Below, piece by piece: positions 29,214 through 41,867 of a DNA stretch of 64,000 nucleotides. The notes beneath the pieces were generated by a model. That model was not told where the DNA came from and ran no database searches. It worked only from the letters and a program-made list of their open reading frames with translations. Source of the stretch: Terriglobia bacterium (GTDB lineage: Bacteria; Acidobacteriota; Terriglobia; 20CM-2-55-15); the NCBI GenBank assembly GCA_965218585.1, contig CBDCLE010000012.1, forward strand, positions 32,001 to 96,000, in the 5' to 3' direction. The position numbers and the translations under genes are program-made. How positions within the stretch are numbered: position 1 is the stretch's first letter; the number at the start of each line of letters is the position of its first letter.

Positions 29214-32001
29214 ATGGCTAAAGCCCTGAAGCCATCTGAGGAGGAACGGATCGTTGTCCGGGGCGCCCGGGTCCACAACCTCAAGAACATCGATTTCGAA
29301 ATCCCGCTCAGTGCTCTGACCGTTGTGACCGGCGTCAGTGGCTCGGGCAAGTCATCGCTGGCATTCGATACCATCTACGCTGAGGGACAGCGGCGCTATA
29401 TCGAGTCCCTGTCCGCCTACGCCCGCCAGTTCCTCGAGCGGATAGAGAAGCCCGACATCGACGATGCTACCGGCATCGCACCCGCCATCGCGATCCGCCA
29501 GAGAAACACAGCCCGCACGCCGCGTTCTACGGTCGGAACCTCGACTGAAATCTACGACTATGTTCGCCTTCTCTTCGCACGCGTCGGCATCACACGCTGC
29601 AGGCAATGTGGAAAGGTTGTGGAACGCGACACGGTAGATCAGATTTTCAACGCTGTTGCCGGCTGGCCCGAGGGCACCCGCTTCTATGTGCTGTTTCCTA
29701 TCCCCCGTCTGGAATCCGAAAACGAAATCGCTGATTGCCTGGGTGATCTCAAGAGACGGGGTTTTGGAAAGGTGTTACAGGACGGTCAAACCTTCGAATA
29801 CTCCCGTCCCGAATCACTCATCGATGCAGACTTCACTCGTCCGAGTTACGTGCTTGTGGACCGCCTGAAAGTTGCACCCGACATACGGCAGCGACTGGTT
29901 GACTCTATTGAAATCTGTTTTCACGAGAATAACGGTGAAGTCGTCATTCAGGAGGCCGAACCGGAAGATGCAAATTCTGGACAGCATCGATTCAGTGAGC
30001 GTTTCGAGTGCAAGGACTGCAACATTCGCTACGAAGATCCGGAACCGAGGCTTTTCTCCTTCAACAATCCGTTCGGAGCATGCTCCCGCTGTCAGGGATT
30101 CGGTAACACCATCGATCTGGACATGAATCTGGCGGTTCCTGATAAAGGGAAATCGCTGGCCGAAGGCGCAATCGTACCCTGGACCAAGCCCCGGTACCGT
30201 CGATATCTGAACGACCTCAAGAAGGAGGCTCTGGAACGGTCGATCCCGATGGATGTCCCCTTCAGAAAACTCGACAAAACCCATCAATCCTTCGTCACCA
30301 AGAAAATCCGGCATTTTTTCGAATACCTCGAGACGAAGAAATACAAACTCCACGTGCGTGTCTTTCTCAGCCGTTACAGAGGCTACACCGTGTGTCCTGA
30401 TTGTAAAGGCGCGCGACTACGGCAAGAGGCACTCGACATCTTTGTCGGAGACACGAACATCGCTGACGTTTCCCACATGTCCACAGCCGAAGCGTTCGAG
30501 TTTTTCAGTGCTCTCAAACTCACCCCGAGCCAGTCAGAGATCGCTGAGCGCATCCTGTGGGAGATCCAGACGCGACTGCGCTTTCTGAACGATGTCGGCT
30601 TGCAGTACCTGACGCTGGATCGATTGTCGTCTACCCTGTCCGGGGGCGAAGCTCAGCGGATCCAGTTGGCAACGTCTTTGGGCTCGACGCTGGTCGGTGC
30701 ACTCTATGTCCTGGACGAACCTTCTATTGGACTCCACGCACGGGATGGAGAGCGACTGATCGACATCCTGAAACGGCTACGGCAACTGGGAAACACGGTG
30801 CTCGTCGTGGAACATGACCGCAACATGATACGTGCTGCGGATTGGCTCATCGATCTCGGCCCCGGAGCGGGAGAGAACGGCGGGAACCTTGTATTTCAGG
30901 GGCCGCTGACCGAATTGGCGGAGACGCCGGCGTCACTGACCGGAAAGTACCTCAACGGCGAACTCAGGATTCCCCTCCCCCGTCAGAGACGGAAACCCGG
31001 AAAGCACAAGTTGTCTCTGACCGGCGCTTCCAAGCACAATCTAAAGAAAGTCGACGTAGAGATTCCCCTCGGACTCATGACCTCGATCACCGGGGTGTCG
31101 GGCTCCGGTAAATCCACTCTCGTACACGACTGTCTTTATGAATCGTTGCGCGCCCACCTCCAGGGAACCGATCCTGACCGGGGATCTGGAAAAGTGGCGT
31201 TCAACCCGAAATGGCTGACAGACGTAGTCCTTGTGGACCAGAGTCCGATAGGCCGGACACCCCGCTCGAAACCCCGTAACCTACATCAAGGCGTTCGATC
31301 AGGTTCGCGATCTTTTCGCGTCTACCGAGCGATCCCGATCCTGCGGCTATACGGCTGGAAGCTTTTCCTTCAATATCCCAGGAGGACGCTGCGAGACATG
31401 CCAGGGGGACGGGACGGTCACGGTCGAGATGCAGTATCTTGCCGATGTTGAACTGGTCTGCGAAGAATGCAAGGGCCATGCGTTACCGGAGCGGCGTCCT
31501 GGAAGTCCTCTACAAGGGAAAGAACATTTACGAAGTGCTTCAAATGACAGTCCGCGAGGCGATTCGTTTCTTCTCCGGAGCCGGCCGGATCACAAAGAAG
31601 CTGACAATGTTGGATGAGGTTGGGCTCGGTTACCTGCGCCTGGGACAGTCCGCGACGACACTTTCTGGTGGAGAAGCACAGCGAGTGAAGCTAGCATCAT
31701 ATTTAGCGAAAGATACGAGTGCCAAAACGCTGTTTATTTTGACGAACCAACGACGGGTCTGCACTTCGACGATATCAACAAGCTGCTGACCGCCTTCCGC
31801 CGTCTGATTCGTGCCGGAGCCTCAGTGCTGATCATCGAACATAATCTCGACGTCGTTAAGTCGTCGGACTGGATTATCGACCTGGGTCCTGAGGGAGGAG
31901 ACGGCGGAGGCAAGGTCGTTGCCCTCGGAACACCGGAGCAGATAGCCCAGTCGCGCCGGTCGGCGACAGGTCGGTTTCTGAAACCCCTGCTGAAGGCATA
32001 G
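29214..32001 (+). CDS. uvrA: Excinuclease ABC subunit A (frameshifted near the 3' end)
   Basis: GARVHNLKN, two GVSGSGKS Walker A motifs, LSGGEAQR twice, Zn fingers; frame breaks near 31270, 31480 and 31740; TAG at 31999-32001. Confidence 0.92.
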
Positions 32002-34393: not shown

Positions 34394-35080
34394 CCGATCT
34401 CGAGTCCGCCTTCCGCAAGATTCATCGCGAACTCAAACCACGCACCCCGGTTCCAAAAATCCAGACAGAGTTCTTCCCTTCTGTTGGCGCGAATCATTCG
34501 GCCACACTTGACGAAGGTGTTCTCCGCGTGCGGGTCAGCGATCTCTTTGCGGACGCACCCGCCGAGATCCTCGAAACGGTGGCGATTATTCTGCTGTCCA
34601 AGCTCTACCGGAAGAAGATCGACGCTGAGTACCACACCGACTACCGTCGCTACACGATGAGTACGGACATGCTCGAGCGCGGCCGTCGGGTTCGATCTGA
34701 AAGAGGTCGGCCTACTCCGACAACTGCCCCTCAGGGAAAGTGCTACGACCTCGGCACCCTCTTTGACGAGATCAACATGGAGTGTTTCTCGGGCGGACTG
34801 CGGAAACCTCAGCTCCTCATGGACCCGGAGGGAGGCCCGGACCGTTCTGGGACGTTACGACTTTGACCAGGACGTGATTTTCATCAGCCGTTTTCTGGAC
34901 TCCGACACCATTCCAGCCCATGTTGTTCGATACATCCTGTTCCACGAGATGCTTCACGTGAAGCATGGAACCGAGATCAAGGGCCTTCGTGAGATCGTTC
35001 ACACGCCGGCTTTCCGACGCGAAGAAAAGCAATTCCCCAACTACCAGTTCGCCCGCGACTGGCTGGATCATAGTACGTAG
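34390..35080 (+). CDS. SprT/YgjP-like Zn metallo-hydrolase (one frameshift)
   Basis: ORFs 34390-34866 and 34763-35080; VVRYILFHEMLH...H motif. Confidence 0.75.
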
Positions 35081-35616
35081 ATCACGCAGATCCGTGTGAT
35101 CCATGTATCCACAGAAGGGCTTTGCCCGCAAATTCGTTCCTGCCCATAAATCATCAGTTCTGCCCGAAAAACCCCACGAGTCCTCTTTATGGCTCTATGC
35201 TGAAAAGCCGCATTGGAAGATGTGGGTGGAAAAATATTGTGAAAATCCTCGCATGCGCTCTCGCCCGCATCGCAGAAGTCTTGGATCGTATCGTAGATGT
35301 GATCCAACCTAGTGTTGAATGACAGATACACGCTGGTGATCTCTTGAAGATACTGTGAGTTCAAGTCCGCTCTTCCACTCACCATCTCCAACTTTGAAAG
35401 AGTGCCTGCCCCAGCGTAGGGGTCGTAATCGGAAGAGAATGCAAAGAGCAATCCCCACGCATCTGCATCTAACTCAGGGTTCCGACTAAAGTCCTGCTTG
35501 CCGGTTTCGAAATTGGTAGACGTGACCCAGTTCGTGCCCGATGGCAAACGCAAGCTCGCTTTCGAAATCCGCGAGTAGTTCCGCTAATGCCAAACTAATT
35601 TCGACCCCGTCTCTAG

Positions 35617-37085
35617 TACTACTGTATTACAAACGAAGCGGTCCACAGAACGGACAACGAGGAAGCTGCTGAATCAGGAAGCGGGCGATGCGAATGCGAA
35701 GCGTGGCAATCGAGCAGGGGTTATGTCGTTCGGGCCGGATCCGGGGTTCCGCGGGGTTTGAAGTGTTTGGGGAGTTTGGGGACGGATAGTCCAACATGCT
35801 CGACAAATGCAGAGGGGGAAAAACGGCTCCGCTCGGCGACCAGGAACCCATAAGAGGCAATACATAAGGTGCCATGATGGTGAAATCCACGCCAGCCGCG
35901 ACCTTCGTAGTGTCCCAGACCGAGTTCCTGCTTGAGTTCCTGATAGTCGCGTTCGATGATCCAGCGCTGTTTGGCCTGACCGGCCAGATCGGAAAGCGAG
36001 GTATGGGCCCCAAGAGTGGAGAGCCAGTACCGGATCGGTTCGGATGCGGTCTTGGGCCACTCGACCAACAACCACTCTTTCGGATGCGGCGAGTGGCGCT
36101 CGTGATCCAGATGAGCGGGACGAATGCGAACTGCGGCGAAACGGGAACGCAGGGTCTCGGAGGTGCCTTCGCGCCAGGAGACGTTCTTCCAACGCTGGGG
36201 AGACAACGAGAGGGCCAGTTGCTTGACCGAAACCGGTTGATGTTTCTTGTTGCGCTGCATGCGGGTCGGTGTCCGTCCGCGGCCGGTCAAGGATTTCGGC
36301 GGCAAGGGACCCTGGCCCGGTTTCCACACGGTCGTGGTGCCTTGCACCCCTAGGACGTAGCTAAGTCCGAGTTCGGTGATGCCGTGCCGGAACTTGTAGT
36401 TGTTGCCGTAGGCCGTATCGCCCAGAACCGGTGCCGGAGCAATGCCGTCATCGACGGCCTGCCGGATTTGTTCCAAAGCAATTTGAGGTTTAGTTTGAAA
36501 TCGAACGTCTTCGGGAATAGCGGCTTTGCTTCGACGTTCCGGATCCTTCGCCCAGGTCTCGGGGAGGTAGAGTCGCCATGCCACCGGCAAGCTGGATTTC
36601 GCTGTCGCCACCGACAGGCTCACCGCCACCCGGCAGTTCTCAGGTTTGCCGACCTGTCCACAGTATTGCCGGGCCACACCCACCGAGTGGGTCCCCTTTT
36701 TCACGAATCCGGTGTCGTCGACAATCCAGGCTTCAATCGGACCGTTGGCTTCCATCGCCCCCAGCGCGTACTGTCGAACTTCTGCCAACAGAGCCGCATC
36801 GTCCCAGGGCGCATCCGCGACCAGATGATGTAGCGACTGGTGCATTCGGCGTACATTATCCGGAGCCAATCGTGCAGCCATCGGCTCCACACTCTTACGT
36901 TTGATCGGCAGCAACAACCCGGTGCAGTACGACTTCAACGGTTCATGACGATCGGCGTGTCCTGCGGCCGACGCCAGGCGTTCCAAATAGGCCGCAAAAC
37001 GTTTTTCCTGAGTGCCTGGCGCCTTCGATTTGGCGCTCATGACCGGATGCTAACATAAAATAGACCGTTTGTAACATAGTAGTAA
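35617..37085 (-). mobile_element. IS701-family element nested in the cargo gene
   Basis: Ends TACTACTGTATTACAAACG and CGTTTGTAACATAGTAGTA; TAG(T) duplicated at the flanks; near-identical copy from 63226. Confidence 0.92.
35721..37040 (-). CDS. IS701-family transposase
   Basis: RKSVEPMA, IVDDTGFVKKGTHSVGVARQYCGQVGK, GDTAYG, RWIIERDYQELKQELGL. Confidence 0.95.
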   Translation of the reverse strand: MSAKSKAPGTQEKRFAAYLERLASAAGHADRHEPLKSYCTGLLLPIKRKSVEPMAARLAPDNVRRMHQSLHHLVADAPWDDAALLAEVRQYALGAMEANGPIEAWIVDDTGFVKKGTHSVGVARQYCGQVGKPENCRVAVSLSVATAKSSLPVAWRLYLPETWAKDPERRSKAAIPEDVRFQTKPQIALEQIRQAVDDGIAPAPVLGDTAYGNNYKFRHGITELGLSYVLGVQGTTTVWKPGQGPLPPKSLTGRGRTPTRMQRNKKHQPVSVKQLALSLSPQRWKNVSWREGTSETLRSRFAAVRIRPAHLDHERHSPHPKEWLLVEWPKTASEPIRYWLSTLGAHTSLSDLAGQAKQRWIIERDYQELKQELGLGHYEGRGWRGFHHHGTLCIASYGFLVAERSRFSPSAFVEHVGLSVPKLPKHFKPRGTPDPARTT

Positions 37086-38082
37086 TAGTGGCGTAGGCGC
37101 TTATTTCCATCTCGGAAGTGACTGTGAGCTCGATGTCATTGGGATTTGGGATATTAGCGCGTACAGAATCATTGCTGACAAGCGAACGAAACACGTTCTC
37201 TATAACGTGCCGATGGGAAGCGGGCCGCGCCGCTGTACCGCTCGGCAGGGACGAATAGACGCCCCCATCGCCTCGAAGGGTCAAAGCGGAAACGTAGCCT
37301 TTTGAAGCTTGGATCAAAACGGACCCGGTGAAATCACCCGGCAAGTCGGGGATGATCTCGCTGAGCAATTTTGCGCTGTGTCCAAATCCAGGTAGTTGTA
37401 CAGATCCATGGAAGGGATTGCCACCGCCGTTCGGTAGGGCGGCAATTTGCATTGATTGTTCAAAGCTGTAGATATTAACTAAGGCAACCCCCAGATCCGG
37501 AGTAGCGGACGAAAAATATTGTGGTGCCGGCAATGATGCAGGAACACTGACCGAATAGAGTACGTTTCCGGCCTCATCCATGGAGCTGTAAGTCGCCGTG
37601 ACTTGAACGAGGTTCGATGCGTAGACGGTTGCCCATCCAACTTGAGGTACTGGACTCGTGCCTCGGCCTGGTGTACTCCAGCATTCCGAAGCGCGGGATC
37701 TCGAACTCGACTGCGTTCCAATACCCATCCTGATTATCGAAATCCAGATAGATATATTCTCCATCGTCTCCTCTGAACCAGACTGTTCCTGTCACGGCTG
37801 TGTGTTTGGATTAGCGATAGTGACTGTGGTGCGCCACCCGCCACCGTCAACGATTTGCGGGATGTAGGACCAAGCATTTGCCGACTCTGGAATGCCAAGG
37901 AAGAATGTTTGAGCCGAATTTGGGTCAGAGAGAGACACAGAAGGGCCAAAACGAGCATGAGCCGTTTCACTGGAGGTTCCTTTTTACCAGGGGAATCGGT
38001 GTTACCGGAACCATTGTTGGTCACCGGGTCGGTTGCCAGACAGAACGCACGCATGTGCGGAATCCCGCCTGTTTCCCGGTAG

Positions 38083-38526
38083 GTGTTGTATTCGGCGGGC
38101 AACCCGGTGATACAGGTCGCGCGAATGCTTCGGAAGGCCATTTCCGAACGAGCCAGAATTGACCGGAAAATTATCGTCATTCAGAACGATCTCGCCAAAC
38201 TTGCCCCACTCTGCGGTATGCCTGAAGCGCAACATCCGCTCGCTGAAATGGGCGTCACCGACGCAGTGCGAAGCATCGTCGGAGCAGCCCCTGAGAAAGG
38301 CGTTGCCACGGCTGGGGTCAGGAAGGTCTCGGCTATGTGTGGCGTGAGATTGCCAGAGTCTAACCCGTTGGCGGCGATTCAGACTGCTTTGAAGCGGCTT
38401 GAATCCAAGGGAGAAATAGAGAGGCGTGAGAGGAAATGGGTCTGGATCAGCAATACAAATCCACCCACGCAGCCGATACCGGAGTGGATGCTCAGGGATC
38501 CTGAAGAGGAAGAAACGGGGGGCTAG
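38083..38526 (+). CDS. Hypothetical coiled-coil plus putative winged-helix DNA-binding protein (start uncertain)
   Basis: 147 aa inside the transposon; heptad-like N-terminal half then GVTDAVRSIV...NPLAAIQTALKRLESKGEIERRERKWVW; fold inferred by eye. Confidence 0.6.
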   Translation: MLYSAGNPVIQVARMLRKAISERARIDRKIIVIQNDLAKLAPLCGMPEAQHPLAEMGVTDAVRSIVGAAPEKGVATAGVRKVSAMCGVRLPESNPLAAIQTALKRLESKGEIERRERKWVWISNTNPPTQPIPEWMLRDPEEEETGG

Positions 38527-38594
38527 CTCAACAGGAGAGAGCACCCGCTTCGTAAGCGGGACCGTTGCGGGTTCGAAGCCCGCGCCCCCATCCA
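38517..38594 (+). tRNA. tRNA-like cloverleaf, anticodon CGT (Thr-type) with a non-Thr, mismatched acceptor stem
   Basis: GGGGGGC TA GCTC AACAGGAGA GAGC A CCCGC TTCGTAA GCGGG ACCGTT GCGGG TTCGAAG CCCGC GCCCCCA T CCA; D, anticodon and T stems pair fully; G1:A72 mismatch; encoded CCA. Confidence 0.75.
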
Positions 38595-38602
38595 AACCGG
38601 CC

Positions 38603-38628
38603 CCGCAGGGTGGTGACACACCCTGCGG
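38603..38628 (+). other. 10-bp perfect hairpin between the tRNA-like element and the transposase
   Basis: CCGCAGGGTG-GTGACA-CACCCTGCGG; no U-tract. Confidence 0.6.
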
Positions 38629-38720
38629 AAGCCATAACCTGCAAGGCGCGTGAAGCACCCGACAGGCAGCAGAACCTCATTGTACTGCCCACGGCCCTTG
38701 CAACGCAAAGGAGATCCACC

Positions 38721-39959
38721 GTGGACGATTCCAGAAAACAACGCGCACTCGAAATCGCGGATAAGTTCAGGATCGCGTCCCAAGACGCATGTCGCTGGAT
38801 GGTTCCTTCGCAGTACGGTACTGGACGCTATTCGGTCACGATCCTCGGCCAAAACTCCCACTGCACCTGCCTGGACTGGGAGAAGCGCCGCCAGCCGTGC
38901 AAGCATGTCATGGCGGTCGAACTCTTCCGTGTGAACAGTGAGCGGATAGGAGACGCCCCGAAGGTCACAGAGGCGATCTATCACACGCCACGACCAACCT
39001 ACAAACAGGACTGGACGGCCTACAACGCAGCGCAAACCAACGAGAAGGACGAGTTTCAGATGCTTCTCTGGGGTTTGTGTCAAGGGCTGAAGCAGCCGAA
39101 GCGGACAGCCGCGGACGACCGGCGCTGCCGATTTCCGATTCGGTATTTGCAGCAGCGTTCAAGGTGTACTCCACAGTTTCCGGGCGCCGGTTCATGAGCG
39201 ACCTTCGGAACGCCAAAGCGTCGGGGGTTTCTTAACCAGCTTCCCCACTACAACTCGATCTTCGACTTGATGGACAACCCCGGATTGACTCAGATTCTTG
39301 AGAACCTGATTACGGAGTCGAGTCTTCCACTGAAATCGGTTGAGCGAGATTTCGCCGTGGATTCGTCCGGATTCTCCACCTGCCGATTCGAGCGGTGGTT
39401 CGATCACAAGCACGGCGGCGATAGGTTCAAGCGAAACTGGGTGAAGGTCCACATCATGTGCGGCGTCAAAACCAACATCGTTACCGCCGTCGAGATCCGT
39501 GGCCGCGAGGCCCACGATGCGCCGTTGCTGCCAGACATGCTGGAATCTACGGCTAAGAACTTCACGATGCACGAGGTTTCCGCCGACAAAGGCTACCTGA
39601 GCGTGAACAACGTGAAGAAGATCGTCGGTTCTGGAGCCGCTCCGTTCATCGCGCTCAAGACCAACAGCCAGCCGCAAACGTCGAGCAAGGTCTGGAATGA
39701 CATGTACTACTACTTCCAGTTGAAGCGAGACGAGTTTCTGGAGCACTACCACAAGCGCTCGAACGTCGAAACCACCTTCCACATGATTAAGTCGAAATTC
39801 AGAGACTCGCTGCGGTCAAAGACCGACCGCGCCCTGGTCAACGAAGCATTGTGTAAGATTCTTTGTCACAATCTTGTAGTCCTGGTTCATGAAGCTCACG
39901 AGCTGGGGGTCGAGCCGATTTTCTGGGCAGAAACCCCGGCTGCCCGAATAAATGCCTGA
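38721..39959 (+). CDS. DDE (IS4/IS5-superfamily-like) transposase with an N-terminal SWIM Zn finger; two compensating frameshifts
   Basis: AAGGAG RBS then GTG 38721; CTCLDWEKRRQPCKH SWIM motif; AVDSSG, SADKGY, YHKRSNVETTF; breaks near 39105 and in the G-run near 39225. Confidence 0.85.
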
Positions 39960-40193
39960 CTTATTTAGTTTTCGGGCAAAGCCCCACAGAAGCTGTGGAA
40001 AAGCCTGTGGAAAGGTCCCTGCTCCCCTTGCCTAAGCACACCTAAAGCTATCGCTTATAGCGTTTTGCACCTTTTCCTGTCACCGGCGTCACTGTTGAAA
40101 AATTCGGTAATTTTTTCGATAGAGGGAAAAATCTGCGTAGGACAGAAAAGACCAATGCAGAGACGCGGAGACGCAGAGGGAAGAAAAACCTAG

Positions 40194-41735
40194 GAGTCTG
40201 CGCGGCAGAAGGACCGAAATTGGGCGGGAATGGATGGAAGATAGGGCATGCCACGAACTTACCGAGCCTATATTCCAGAACAGAGCCTGCTGATGCCACC
40301 GTCGCTGAGCGATTGGCTGGCCGAAGATCACCTGTCGTACTTCATATCGGATGCTGTGGACGCGATGGATTTGAGCGGGTTCGAACAGAGGCATGGAACT
40401 GACGGGCCTGGCAATCAGGCCTTCGATCCGCGGATGATGGTGAAGGTGATGATCTATGGGTACGGGACCGGAGTGTTTTCATCCAGGAAGATCGCAGCGA
40501 AGTTGAGAGAAGATGTGGCGTTCCGGATGTTGGGAGCCGAGAACTTTCCCGCGCACCGAACGATCTCGGATTTTCGCAAACTGCATCTTGAGGAGTTCGG
40601 GAAGCTGTTTGTGCAAGTGGTGATGATGGCGCGAGAAGCGGGTTTGGTGAAGATGGGGACGGTAGCGGTGGACGGAACCAAGATGCGGGCGAATGCGAGC
40701 AAACGCAAAGCGATGAGCTATCAACGCATGAAGAAGCAGGAGACCGAGTTGGGTGAGCAGATTCGGGATCTGTTGAACCGGGCGACCGCGACCGATGAGG
40801 ACGAAGACCAGCGTTACGGCAAGGACCGGCGCGGAGACGAACTACCCGACGGGTTGGCGACCCGTAAGAAGCGTCTGGCCACGATCCAGGCGGCGATGAA
40901 GCGACTCGAGGAACGTCAGATGGCTGCGGACCAGGAAGCCGGACGGAAACCGGGAGACGACGAACCGGGAAGCGGAAAGAAGGGCAAGCCATTCAAACGC
41001 CCCATGGGCGAGCCCAAGCCCAAGGCCCAGGAGAACTTCACCGATCCAGAAAGCCGGATCATGAAGACCTCCACGGAAGGGTTCCAGCAATGTTACAACG
41101 CGCAGGCGATGGTGGATTCCGAGGCCCGGATCATCGTGGCGACCACGGTGAGCGACAATGCGTCGGATGTGGGGCAGTTGGAGCCGACTCTGGATGCGGT
41201 GAACAACAACCTGGGAGAGTCTCCAGGCCGCGTGCTCGCTGATGCGGGGTATCGATCCGAGTCGAATCTGGGGATGTTAGAACAACGCCAAATTGATGGG
41301 TATGTCGCCATGGGGCGGGAGAAGGACCTGGACGATGCCCCCCTCCCGCCACAAGATACCGCGCTTGGTCGGATGACGAGAAAAATGAAATCCCCGTCTG
41401 GGCGTGATCGCTACCGGGCCAGAAAGCACATTGGTGAACCGCCCTTCGGGTGGATCAAATCGGTGCTCGGATTCCGACAGTTCAGTCTGCGAGGTTTGGA
41501 CAAGGTGACCTGTGAGTGGAACCTGGTGACTCTAGCAGTGAACTTACGACGGATGAACGGGAAGATCGAATGGGCCTAATCCGGAAAACCGGGACCGCCA
41601 CCCTTATCACACGGCTTACTACTGGAGTCCGCACCGGTCTGAGTTCATCATAACGGCAGAATCGGTCCGGTCGCCTCCGACAACACGATCAAATCCCAAT
41701 AAATCCAGGTTCTTTCCGCTCTGCCGCGCAGACTC
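40194..41735 (+). mobile_element. IS1182-family insertion sequence
   Basis: 16-bp perfect IRs GAGTCTGCGCGGCAGA / TCTGCCGCGCAGACTC; CTAG duplicated at 40190-40193 and 41736-41739. Confidence 0.93.
40248..41579 (+). CDS. IS1182-family transposase
   Basis: FDPRMMVKVMIYGY, SSRKI, PAHRTISDFR, VDGTKMRANAS, NFTDPESRIM, LADAGY, EPPFGWIK. Confidence 0.93.
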   Translation: MPRTYRAYIPEQSLLMPPSLSDWLAEDHLSYFISDAVDAMDLSGFEQRHGTDGPGNQAFDPRMMVKVMIYGYGTGVFSSRKIAAKLREDVAFRMLGAENFPAHRTISDFRKLHLEEFGKLFVQVVMMAREAGLVKMGTVAVDGTKMRANASKRKAMSYQRMKKQETELGEQIRDLLNRATATDEDEDQRYGKDRRGDELPDGLATRKKRLATIQAAMKRLEERQMAADQEAGRKPGDDEPGSGKKGKPFKRPMGEPKPKAQENFTDPESRIMKTSTEGFQQCYNAQAMVDSEARIIVATTVSDNASDVGQLEPTLDAVNNNLGESPGRVLADAGYRSESNLGMLEQRQIDGYVAMGREKDLDDAPLPPQDTALGRMTRKMKSPSGRDRYRARKHIGEPPFGWIKSVLGFRQFSLRGLDKVTCEWNLVTLAVNLRRMNGKIEWA

Positions 41736-41867
41736 CTAGGTTGTATACATCTTCCCGCATTCACACGTGAAGGGTTCACAACTACTCTATTGCCAACCCA
41801 ACCAAGTTCAGGGAACTCCGAACGTCGGCAACCTGTCTTGTCTTCTCTGCGTCTCTGCGCCTCTGCG

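Follow-up and report, generated by a model that had tools for sequence, protein, structure and literature searches.

Acidobacteria are known to carry allo-tRNAs and other irregular transfer RNAs (tRNAs) whose acceptor and T stems have 7/5 or 8/4 pairs and whose anticodons are very diverse (Mukai et al., 2017, Nucleic Acids Res 45:2776, PMC5389517; reviewed in PMC7609411). The allo-tRNAs span 35 anticodons, with UAU, GCG and GUC predominating, and some of them insert Ser or Ala in E. coli translation (PMC5389517). Mukai et al. suggested links of allo-tRNAs to transposable elements and toxin-antitoxin loci and described one allo-tRNA(UAU) pseudogene that overlaps a "transposon-related" open reading frame (ORF) (PMC5389517). 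Here, we analyzed a 64-kilobase (kb) stretch from the genome of a soil-dwelling Terriglobia bacterium (assembly GCA_965218585.1, contig CBDCLE010000012.1, positions 32,001 to 96,000), hereafter the window, in whose own numbering all positions are given. We found that it holds a genuine, structurally intact tRNA gene of 75 nucleotides (nt) with a 7/5 cloverleaf and anticodon CGU. This gene is cargo of a 3.4-kb transposon with a SWIM-DDE transposase, and related elements repeat the same order: an ORF that we call ORF-X, the tRNA, a hairpin, a structured leader and the transposase.

The tRNA gene after correction of the assembly

ARAGORN calls a single tRNA within the window, Thr(CGT) at 38517-38594 on the plus strand. 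In a local scan of 501 bases, the Rfam tRNA model RF00005 scored 47.5 bits (E 3.9e-9, model positions 1-71, sequence as assembled), above its gathering score of 29; oddly, a scan of the whole window at the gathering threshold listed nothing. The cloverleaf that a first-pass annotation of the sequence had drawn at 38517-38594 is borne out by the call and the local score. Of the features described for it, the D, anticodon and T stems are free of mismatches, and U8-A9, the D-loop GG, the T-loop (TTCGAAG) and the variable loop of 6 nt can all be seen in the sequence. The gene is delimited as follows:

38517 to 38590, plus strand: tRNA gene with anticodon CGT at 38551-38553 (ARAGORN, Rfam tRNA, public contigs, homologue L143)

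The same annotation had pictured the cloverleaf as a non-canonical tRNA mimic with a G1:A72 mismatch, U73 and an encoded CCA. We aligned contigs from four public runs to positions 38000-40000; X1 and X2 represent one sample, possibly the one behind the genome assembly in the case of X1, which is hence not independent, while X3, from a different study, and the homologue L143 are independent. Three single-base differences from the assembly emerged, all in homopolymer runs: the public contigs have an additional C following 38584, an additional G following 39107 and a base less at 39223. The extra C occurs in every covering contig (X1, depth 6.07 of 6.07 in two contigs; X2, 2 of 2; X3, 3.26 of 3.26) and is the sixth C in the 3' strand of the acceptor stem; L143, a locus on a metagenome contig, independently shows GCCCCCC-A-TCCAAACC. 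Since this C restores the stem in all covering contigs, neither the mismatch nor U73 nor the encoded CCA is real; all three result from a 1-nt assembly deletion, which leaves the picture of a non-canonical mimic unsupported.

With the missing C restored, the tRNA grows from the 74 nt of the assembly to 75 nt and is redrawn by ARAGORN with a perfect 7-base-pair (bp) acceptor stem (GGGGGGC/GCCCCCC), A38590 as discriminator A73 and TCCA as trailer, without an in-register CCA. The D, anticodon and T stems have 4, 5 and 5 bp; U8, the D-loop GG, U33, a purine at 37 and a TTCRA T-loop are in place, all 21 pairs are standard and the conserved loop bases are all present. Several unusual traits survive the correction, namely the G2-C71 pair, the all-G acceptor stem, the 6-nt variable loop and a G at T-loop position 60. 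The other two differences, covered by X1 only, coincide with both frameshifts of the transposase gene, whose corrected frame is open, and such indels indicate that the assembly holds homopolymer errors. It was these errors that produced the "non-canonical" marks which drew attention to the locus, so odd tRNAs in such assemblies need a read check. An error of this kind may also account for the split of a UvrA-like gene into 29214-31451 and 31439-31789.

A disagreement between anticodon and acceptor, also claimed at first, stands in part. The anticodon bears the tRNA-Thr identity bases G35 and U36 (rules as given in PMC9976931), and the corrected gene has G1-C72 as do the host tRNA-Thr genes, so the supposed departure at the first pair belonged to the assembly error. 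The second acceptor pair is G2-C71 in the cargo tRNA versus C2-G71 in all three host tRNA-Thr. The prospect that reads would turn the feature into a canonical tRNA, which the first-pass annotation had itself named as a refutation, thus came true in part, for the mismatch, U73 and CCA. The discriminator is A73 after correction versus T73 in the three host genes; position 73 is said to weigh little in Thr identity, for which the anticodon and species-variable acceptor pairs count (PMC9976931). Among the 51 tRNA calls of the host genome (4.55 Mb) is an ordinary Thr(CGT) on contig C24, and the closest host tRNA matches the cargo tRNA at 58 of 75 positions, which makes the latter an extra gene and no recent duplicate. 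Three other host calls are over-long, Leu(tag) of 93 nt at C4 c105179-105271, Gly(ccc) of 81 nt at C2 158469-158549 and Arg(tct) of 87 nt at C19 34293-34379, and may be further irregular tRNAs or insertion-bearing ones.

The metagenome locus L143 encodes a transposase 59% identical to that of the window, with a 74-nt tRNA 149 nt upstream that scores 59.4 bits with the Rfam tRNA model. Both tRNAs have the same T arm, the same acceptor stem (GGGGGGC/GCCCCCC), A73 and TCCAAACC as trailer, but the anticodon is CUG in L143 versus CGU in the window. Counted per cloverleaf segment, because a MAFFT alignment of four 7/5 cargo tRNAs misregistered the anticodon arm, 19 of the 21 pairs of the corrected window tRNA are identical in L143, two are replaced by compensatory pairs (G10-C25 by A-T, C31-G39 by G-C) and none is broken, in contrast to the unpaired positions, where 10 of the 27 that can be compared differ. 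A minor X1 variant contig differs from the tRNA region of the window at three unpaired positions only (38537, 38563 and 38591). Pairs that are kept while loops change form the pattern expected under selection for the cloverleaf, as had been proposed at the outset, and these comparisons make it very probable that the feature is an intact cargo tRNA gene under selection. Another early proposal, a captured tRNA in decay, fits poorly with the intact cloverleaf and the compensatory changes. A high-copy insertion sequence (IS) has landed in a cargo gene of the element, which is single-copy in the genome, and the transposase of the relative G001 is heavily frameshifted, all of which would suit a relic. 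Yet, every pair is standard after correction, the conserved loop bases are there, the window transposase is intact in public contigs and the changes in L143 are not disruptive, so that we regard a functionless relic drifting to decay as highly improbable.

Further copies of this tRNA were sought in three ways. BLAST of positions 38517-38640 against 401 Terriglobia genomes returned only matches of 57-66 nt, at 78-80% identity, to tRNAs of the host type, of which three are genes for tRNA-Arg and two are calls of a "Ser" tRNA with a short arm, and a 25-nt T-arm/acceptor pattern, allowing up to three mismatches, found only a canonical tRNA-Val with a GGGGGGT acceptor and A73 in 401 genomes of the phylum. 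The metagenome scan with the transposase gave no relative above 59% identity, and L143 was the sole true tRNA homologue that it yielded.

The transposon, its insertion site and its leader

The element that carries the tRNA, together with its parts, is delimited as follows:

35118 to 39983, plus strand: transposon of 4866 bp, or 3389 bp minus the nested IS (ends, target-site duplication, empty sites)
35109 to 35117, no strand: left copy of the 9-bp target-site duplication, CCACAGAAG (direct reading)
39984 to 39992, no strand: right copy of the duplication, CCACAGAAG (direct reading), present as one copy in the empty-site relatives
38083 to 38526, plus strand: ORF-X, 147 amino acids, coiled coil and winged-helix-like C-terminus (translation, positional homologues in related elements)
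38721 to 39959, plus strand: transposase, 412 amino acids, SWIM zinc finger and IS4/IS5-type DDE domain (translation; Pfam SWIM 3.3e-8, DDE_Tnp_1 (PF01609) 2.7e-27)
38599 to 38633, plus strand: strong hairpin without a U-tract, directly 3' of the tRNA (minimum-free-energy fold)
38689 to 38724, plus strand: leader helix CCACGG/CCGTGG enclosing the Shine-Dalgarno sequence and the GTG start (fold)
37734 to 38180, minus strand: cargo ORF, 148 amino acids, without family match (ORF list)
35612 to 37088, minus strand: nested high-copy IS with a DDE_5 transposase (Pfam DDE_5, E 4e-85), interrupting a minus-strand cargo gene

The transposon ends in inverted repeats (GGCTTTGCCC... at the left, ...GGGCAAAGCC at the right) and contains two minus-strand ORFs without family match, one of them split by the nested IS, in addition to ORF-X, the tRNA, the hairpin and the transposase on the plus strand. 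The empty site is seen in four relatives (G003, G004, G021 and G013), where the SprT-like gene (window 34763-35080) is joined, within a few hundred bases, to the conserved non-coding stretch (window 39984-40188) beside hflX. As the first-pass annotation had concluded, the tRNA lies mid-element and is no attachment (att) site: the left end is 3.4 kb and the right end 1.4 kb away from it, no integrase is encoded, and the duplication consists of 9 bp that are not part of a tRNA. A first comparison with the DNA of G001 did begin inside the T-arm and suggested an element end there, as would fit a host tRNA serving as insertion target, but the true left end and the empty sites refute this. The chance that the gene is such a target or an att site, or a guide RNA for the transposase, is in our view practically negligible. 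As for the guide variant, which we rejected, 2 of 11 elements contain the anticodon, or the complement of it, within their target duplication, no more than expected by chance (about 0.2 for each element).

The nested IS has 22 other full-length copies in the genome at 99.5% identity or more. A second IS, likewise very active, lies at 40189-41740, with a DUF772/DDE_Tnp_1 transposase and eight other full-length copies; the copies of both IS kinds are 99.5-100% identical genome-wide. Between these two high-copy ISs, the stretch 37089-40188 is single-copy. Neither the 148-amino-acid ORF nor the other cargo ORFs of the window could be assigned to a family in Pfam, PHROGs or NCBIfam.

The host genome (G000) and G048, which belongs to another genus of the same family, carry related elements in one and the same chromosomal site (window 35100-35117 and 39984-40040; locus L092). 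This site consists of a CCACAG...CTGTGG palindrome followed by repeated TGTGGAAA motifs, which we take to resemble DnaA boxes, and is conserved in the family, where hflX and the SprT-like gene flank it. The transposases of G000 and G048 are 86-87% identical, as against 62-80% for their hflX segments, a contrast that hints at independent insertion or transfer, not descent. The order of parts in the G048 element is that of the window: ORF-X, tRNA, hairpin, transposase.

As for the transposase, the gene as assembled has 412 codons with one internal stop and an out-of-frame stretch between the indels at about 39107 and 39223; an intact 412-amino-acid protein on record (P0002) is identical outside that stretch. 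The best NCBIfam model, IS5_2, scored 112.6 bits against a cut-off of 140, with only the 230-amino-acid DDE part scored, so that we assign the element to no named IS family. The DDE_Tnp_1 domain, the terminal inverted repeats and the target duplication of fixed length (9 bp) are nevertheless those of the IS4/IS5 superfamily. In 13 related elements, the strand opposite the transposase and the sequence before it has open frames of 600-814 amino acids that extend over the tRNA (e.g., L042:1723-4164 and L021:1786-4137, both on the minus strand); these are probably shadow ORFs, though unusually long for 57% G+C.

The GTG start of the transposase at 38721 stands 126 nt after 38594, the distance first reported, and the space between is structured. 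The hairpin is kept in five related leaders with pairs changed on both sides, and six pairs of the helix around the start codon are kept in four to five of the five leaders; this conservation makes the leader clearly regulatory, and the helix is probably a translational brake on the transposase, as judged from the predicted folds. The structure is present whichever tRNA stands upstream. A crude scan predicted no promoter-like site on the plus strand near ORF-X or the tRNA, nor between them. Such an arrangement, with the tRNA on the same strand within the transposase leader, a conserved hairpin behind it, the start codon hidden in a helix and no predicted promoter of its own, would suit a tRNA fold that acts only in cis: a cutting signal for RNase P and RNase Z, or an insulator, that parts transcripts of ORF-X or of read-through from the transposase mRNA, sets the 5' end of that mRNA and has no use in translation. 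This is the main rival to a decoding role.

The tRNA slot and its possible role

We collected 80 loci with relatives of the transposase from species-representative genomes and 80 further loci from metagenomes, 68 of them with enough upstream sequence. In 16 of the 80 genome loci, ARAGORN calls a tRNA on the strand of the transposase whose end lies 127-413 nt before the transposase; two more can be added by eye, and 6 of the 68 metagenome loci also have such a tRNA, where the tRNA density of the host (51 in 4.55 Mb) would lead one to expect about 0.002 per locus. The GGCTTTGC inverted repeat and a 9-bp duplication with at most one mismatch bound 43 of 81 loci, giving element lengths of 2.7-6.5 kb. 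Wherever the ends are mapped and a tRNA is present, be it called by ARAGORN (10 loci) or recognized by eye (two), its place is after the left repeat and before the transposase. Given this enrichment, the mapped ends and the position of the tRNA inside them, these loci are small transposons that carry passenger genes, with the tRNA as cargo. We considered insertion beside tRNA genes and rejected it on account of the element ends, the empty sites and the duplicated targets, which are unrelated to one another across the 43 loci.

In a quick maximum-likelihood tree of 79 transposases (IQ-TREE), tRNA-bearing elements make up 18 of 48 rows from Acidobacteriota and none of the 31 from other or unknown phyla; one low-threshold ARAGORN call was seen in the proteobacterial locus L019. 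The tRNA label changes at least 10 times on this tree. Elements L072 and L083 have near-identical transposases (end branches 0.019 and 0.015) and yet unrelated tRNAs at different distances, and the 7/5 Thr-CGU tRNA of the window faces a long-arm Ile-UAU tRNA in the sister element L092. Such differences between close relatives, together with the number of changes on the tree, imply that the slot is often refilled or swapped. In the closest relatives of the window element, those of G048 and G001, the slot is filled by a long-arm tRNA of 88 nt that has UAU or UAC as its anticodon; other elements carry GGAG-type long-arm tRNAs with GCA, UAA, UAU, GUA, GUC or CCA, and several hold short-arm 7/5 tRNAs like that of the window. 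The tRNAs of L020, L021, L027 and L033 have nine acceptor pairs and three to four T-stem pairs, and that of L040, with anticodon GGU, is of the 8/4 shape. A cargo tRNA called Val(gac) in L179:989-1064 bears G3:U70 and A73, alanine identity marks on a valine anticodon. In L035:2548-2723, two tandem tRNAs, called Gly(tcc) of 76 nt and Cys(gca) of 94 nt, precede the transposase, which recalls the published "polycistrons of irregular tRNAs".

In the window, ORF-X stands directly upstream of the tRNA, and its stop codon falls within the first 10 nt of the tRNA. The ORF-X family, whose proteins combine a coiled coil with a winged-helix-like part, occurs in 49 of 401 Terriglobia genomes, a tally that includes the unpublished G336, used for this count only. 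Its members give only weak Pfam matches of helix-turn-helix (HTH) type, and the protein atlas places them only in acidobacterial hypothetical clusters; among the nearest named clusters is an AbiEi-type HTH, which is a weak lead. At the transposase loci, the tRNA directly follows ORF-X in 10 of the 11 that bear it. Among 29 further Terriglobia ORF-X loci, however, ARAGORN calls a tRNA downstream in only seven, for which reason we rejected ORF-X as an obligate partner of the tRNA. The next gene at these loci is often an IS1-like transposase and in one case a transposase of the Mutator type. A second ORF-X in the genome of the window (C22:178015-179640, L137) is followed by an irregular 89-nt tRNA, Ala(tgc), at C22:178573-178661 and then by a 281-amino-acid ORF with a weak IS1-type DDE match. 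The occurrence of the pair before varied transposases makes ORF-X and the tRNA look like a module that precedes several transposase families.

Across 28 cargo tRNAs, U33 is kept in 26 and A37 in 27, counts that ARAGORN may inflate somewhat by favoring U33 and a purine at 37 in its scoring, while positions 34-36 reach an entropy of 1.5-2.0 bits. With the triplet varying inside a decoding-type loop that is otherwise kept, a role that involves reading of the anticodon is favored over that of a mere cutting signal, which needs the acceptor and T arm only. That any tRNA shape seems to be accepted in the slot would suit a cis-acting RNA; on the other side, the distance to the transposase start ranges from 126 to 413 nt, pairs of ORF-X and tRNA also precede unrelated transposases, and most family members manage without a tRNA. 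Taking these points together, we consider the cis-acting alternative unlikely. The reading that we prefer, and hold to be somewhat better than even, is that of an intact cargo tRNA of the acidobacterial "irregular tRNA" kind that is probably able to decode; for its actual use in translation, the scales are evenly balanced.

If the cargo tRNA does decode, it would be transcribed with ORF-X or just after it, released by RNase P and RNase Z and completed at its 3' end by the CCA enzyme, and would then act in trans, decoding ACG. The anticodon points to threonyl-tRNA synthetase (ThrRS) and the acceptor stem is unlike that of the host tRNA-Thr, so that the amino acid charged might be Thr or a missense one. 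Since Thr identity rests on the anticodon and on species-variable pairs (PMC9976931), ThrRS is the likeliest enzyme, and G2-C71 makes even this uncertain. A search of the genome for a second ThrRS found only one copy above the cut-off.

Several points, besides the scoring bias just named and the foreign second acceptor pair, weigh against a decoding role. The host already has a tRNA-Thr(CGU) and one ThrRS, which would render a Thr-charged cargo copy redundant. Only two members of this tRNA body were found, in the window and in L143. Many family members have ends and target duplications and lack a tRNA, which is thus not needed for transposition. Contigs from an RNA library (X6) cover 38017-38496 (95-99% identity) and 39920-39984 and not the tRNA, a gap that is uninformative; these contigs could also be DNA or stem from a relative. 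In addition, six allo-tRNA(UAU) variants were inactive in E. coli, and two G-1 tRNA(GGU) species were charged yet unused in translation (PMC5389517).

The unusual acceptor stem or anticodon loop might instead serve a mobile spare tRNA that resists, or sponges, tRNA-targeting toxins, such as those of toxin-antitoxin systems and defence nucleases or modifiers. The all-G stem is unlike host tRNA-Thr, one toxin is reported to pick tRNA-Gly and tRNA-Thr by their acceptor stem (PMC11245113), allo-tRNA genes often stand beside toxin-antitoxin systems (Mukai et al., PMC5389517), and the AbiEi-type HTH near ORF-X, weak as it is, points the same way. However, profile scans, run without PADLOC, found no toxin, nuclease or known defence family in the cargo ORFs of the window and of 10 related tRNA-bearing elements, and the anticodons in the slot span many amino acids and not one target. 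We regard an escape or decoy role as quite improbable. We also rejected a bldA-like self-regulation, as the codon matching the cargo tRNA is not enriched in the element's own transposase and, in most of 18 cases, does not exceed the mean of the family; the window transposase has seven ACG codons, a number that 70 of 78 others equal or surpass. Codon use depends on host G+C content and relatedness as well, so that this test can be read as a negative result only.

Were the cargo tRNAs to decode, as we prefer to think, a bolder and doubtful extension suggests itself: small acidobacterial DDE transposons would be vehicles for a pool of tRNAs in which anticodons are switched on a conserved body, and the window tRNA would be a missense decoder of ACG. 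Such switching would be exemplified by the GGGGGGC body, which occurs with CGU and with CUG, and by a GGCGGG body, which occurs with UAU, UAC, GUA and CCA. If this were true, with charging by an amino acid other than Thr or under certain conditions only, the element would be a mobile missense decoder, and low-level recoding or regulated mistranslation could spread horizontally.

Comparison with described systems

The nearest described relatives are the allo-tRNAs and irregular tRNAs of the same phylum, which, like the window tRNA, are extra tRNAs with body and anticodon uncoupled (PMC5389517). Sister elements of the window transposon hold allo-type shapes, 9/3 and 8/4 (L020, L021, L027, L033 and L040), and two of the predominant anticodons of that paper, UAU and GUC, occur among the slot tRNAs too. 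The window tRNA itself is 7/5 instead of 8/4 or 9/3, has a 6-nt variable loop instead of a long arm and A73 instead of G73 or U73; with such a cloverleaf and loop it is no allo-tRNA by definition. The irregular 7/5 and 8/4 tRNAs have anticodons at odds with their other identity marks and stand at loci with allo-tRNAs, toxin-antitoxin genes or transposon genes (PMC5389517); the window tRNA, with its mismatch of anticodon and acceptor and a slot shared with allo-type tRNAs, is a candidate member of this group.

Viral 3' tRNA-like structures and mRNA operators resemble the cargo tRNA in presenting a tRNA shape in a longer transcript beside a coding region (PMC9976931). Those mimics miss parts of the cloverleaf or conserved bases, whereas the window tRNA has four arms, the conserved bases and a full-length Rfam match.

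With respect to mobile elements, the closest superfamily is IS4/IS5, with which the window element shares DDE_Tnp_1, terminal inverted repeats and the 9-bp target duplication, and from which it differs by the N-terminal SWIM zinc finger and by cargo on both sides of the transposase. ISs with passenger genes are referred to as "transporter IS", and phages as well as other mobile elements carry tRNA genes. Like these, the element bears a complete cargo tRNA gene in addition to the host set; here, however, the tRNA rides on a small DDE transposon, in which it is the only one and holds a fixed place just before the transposase, and we saw no match between the anticodon of the cargo and the codon use of the element itself.

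When the irregular and allo-tRNAs of Acidobacteria were described in 2017, the link to mobile elements was merely a remark. One irregular tRNA and about two dozen relatives are now placed at a defined position in a transposon family with mapped ends, and the anticodon triplet has turned out to be the hypervariable part of an otherwise conserved decoding-type loop. This turns a loose association into a testable system, with an assembled host genome, an element of 3.4 kb and a single tRNA gene. Should the cargo tRNAs decode, the transposons carry altered decoders from one genome to another; otherwise, the tRNAs represent a new kind of tRNA-shaped regulatory cargo. The order of ORF-X, tRNA and transposase, the element ends and the exchange in the slot were not found described in the parts of the allo-tRNA and transposase literature that we searched, while the supplements of Mukai et al. 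may show such loci. With its mismatch traced to an assembly error, the window tRNA is less strange than it first seemed and belongs to a phenomenon already in print. What is new here is the mapped transposon, the fixed slot with its rapid exchange of tRNAs, the ORF-X partner and a 7/5 body that occurs with two anticodons.

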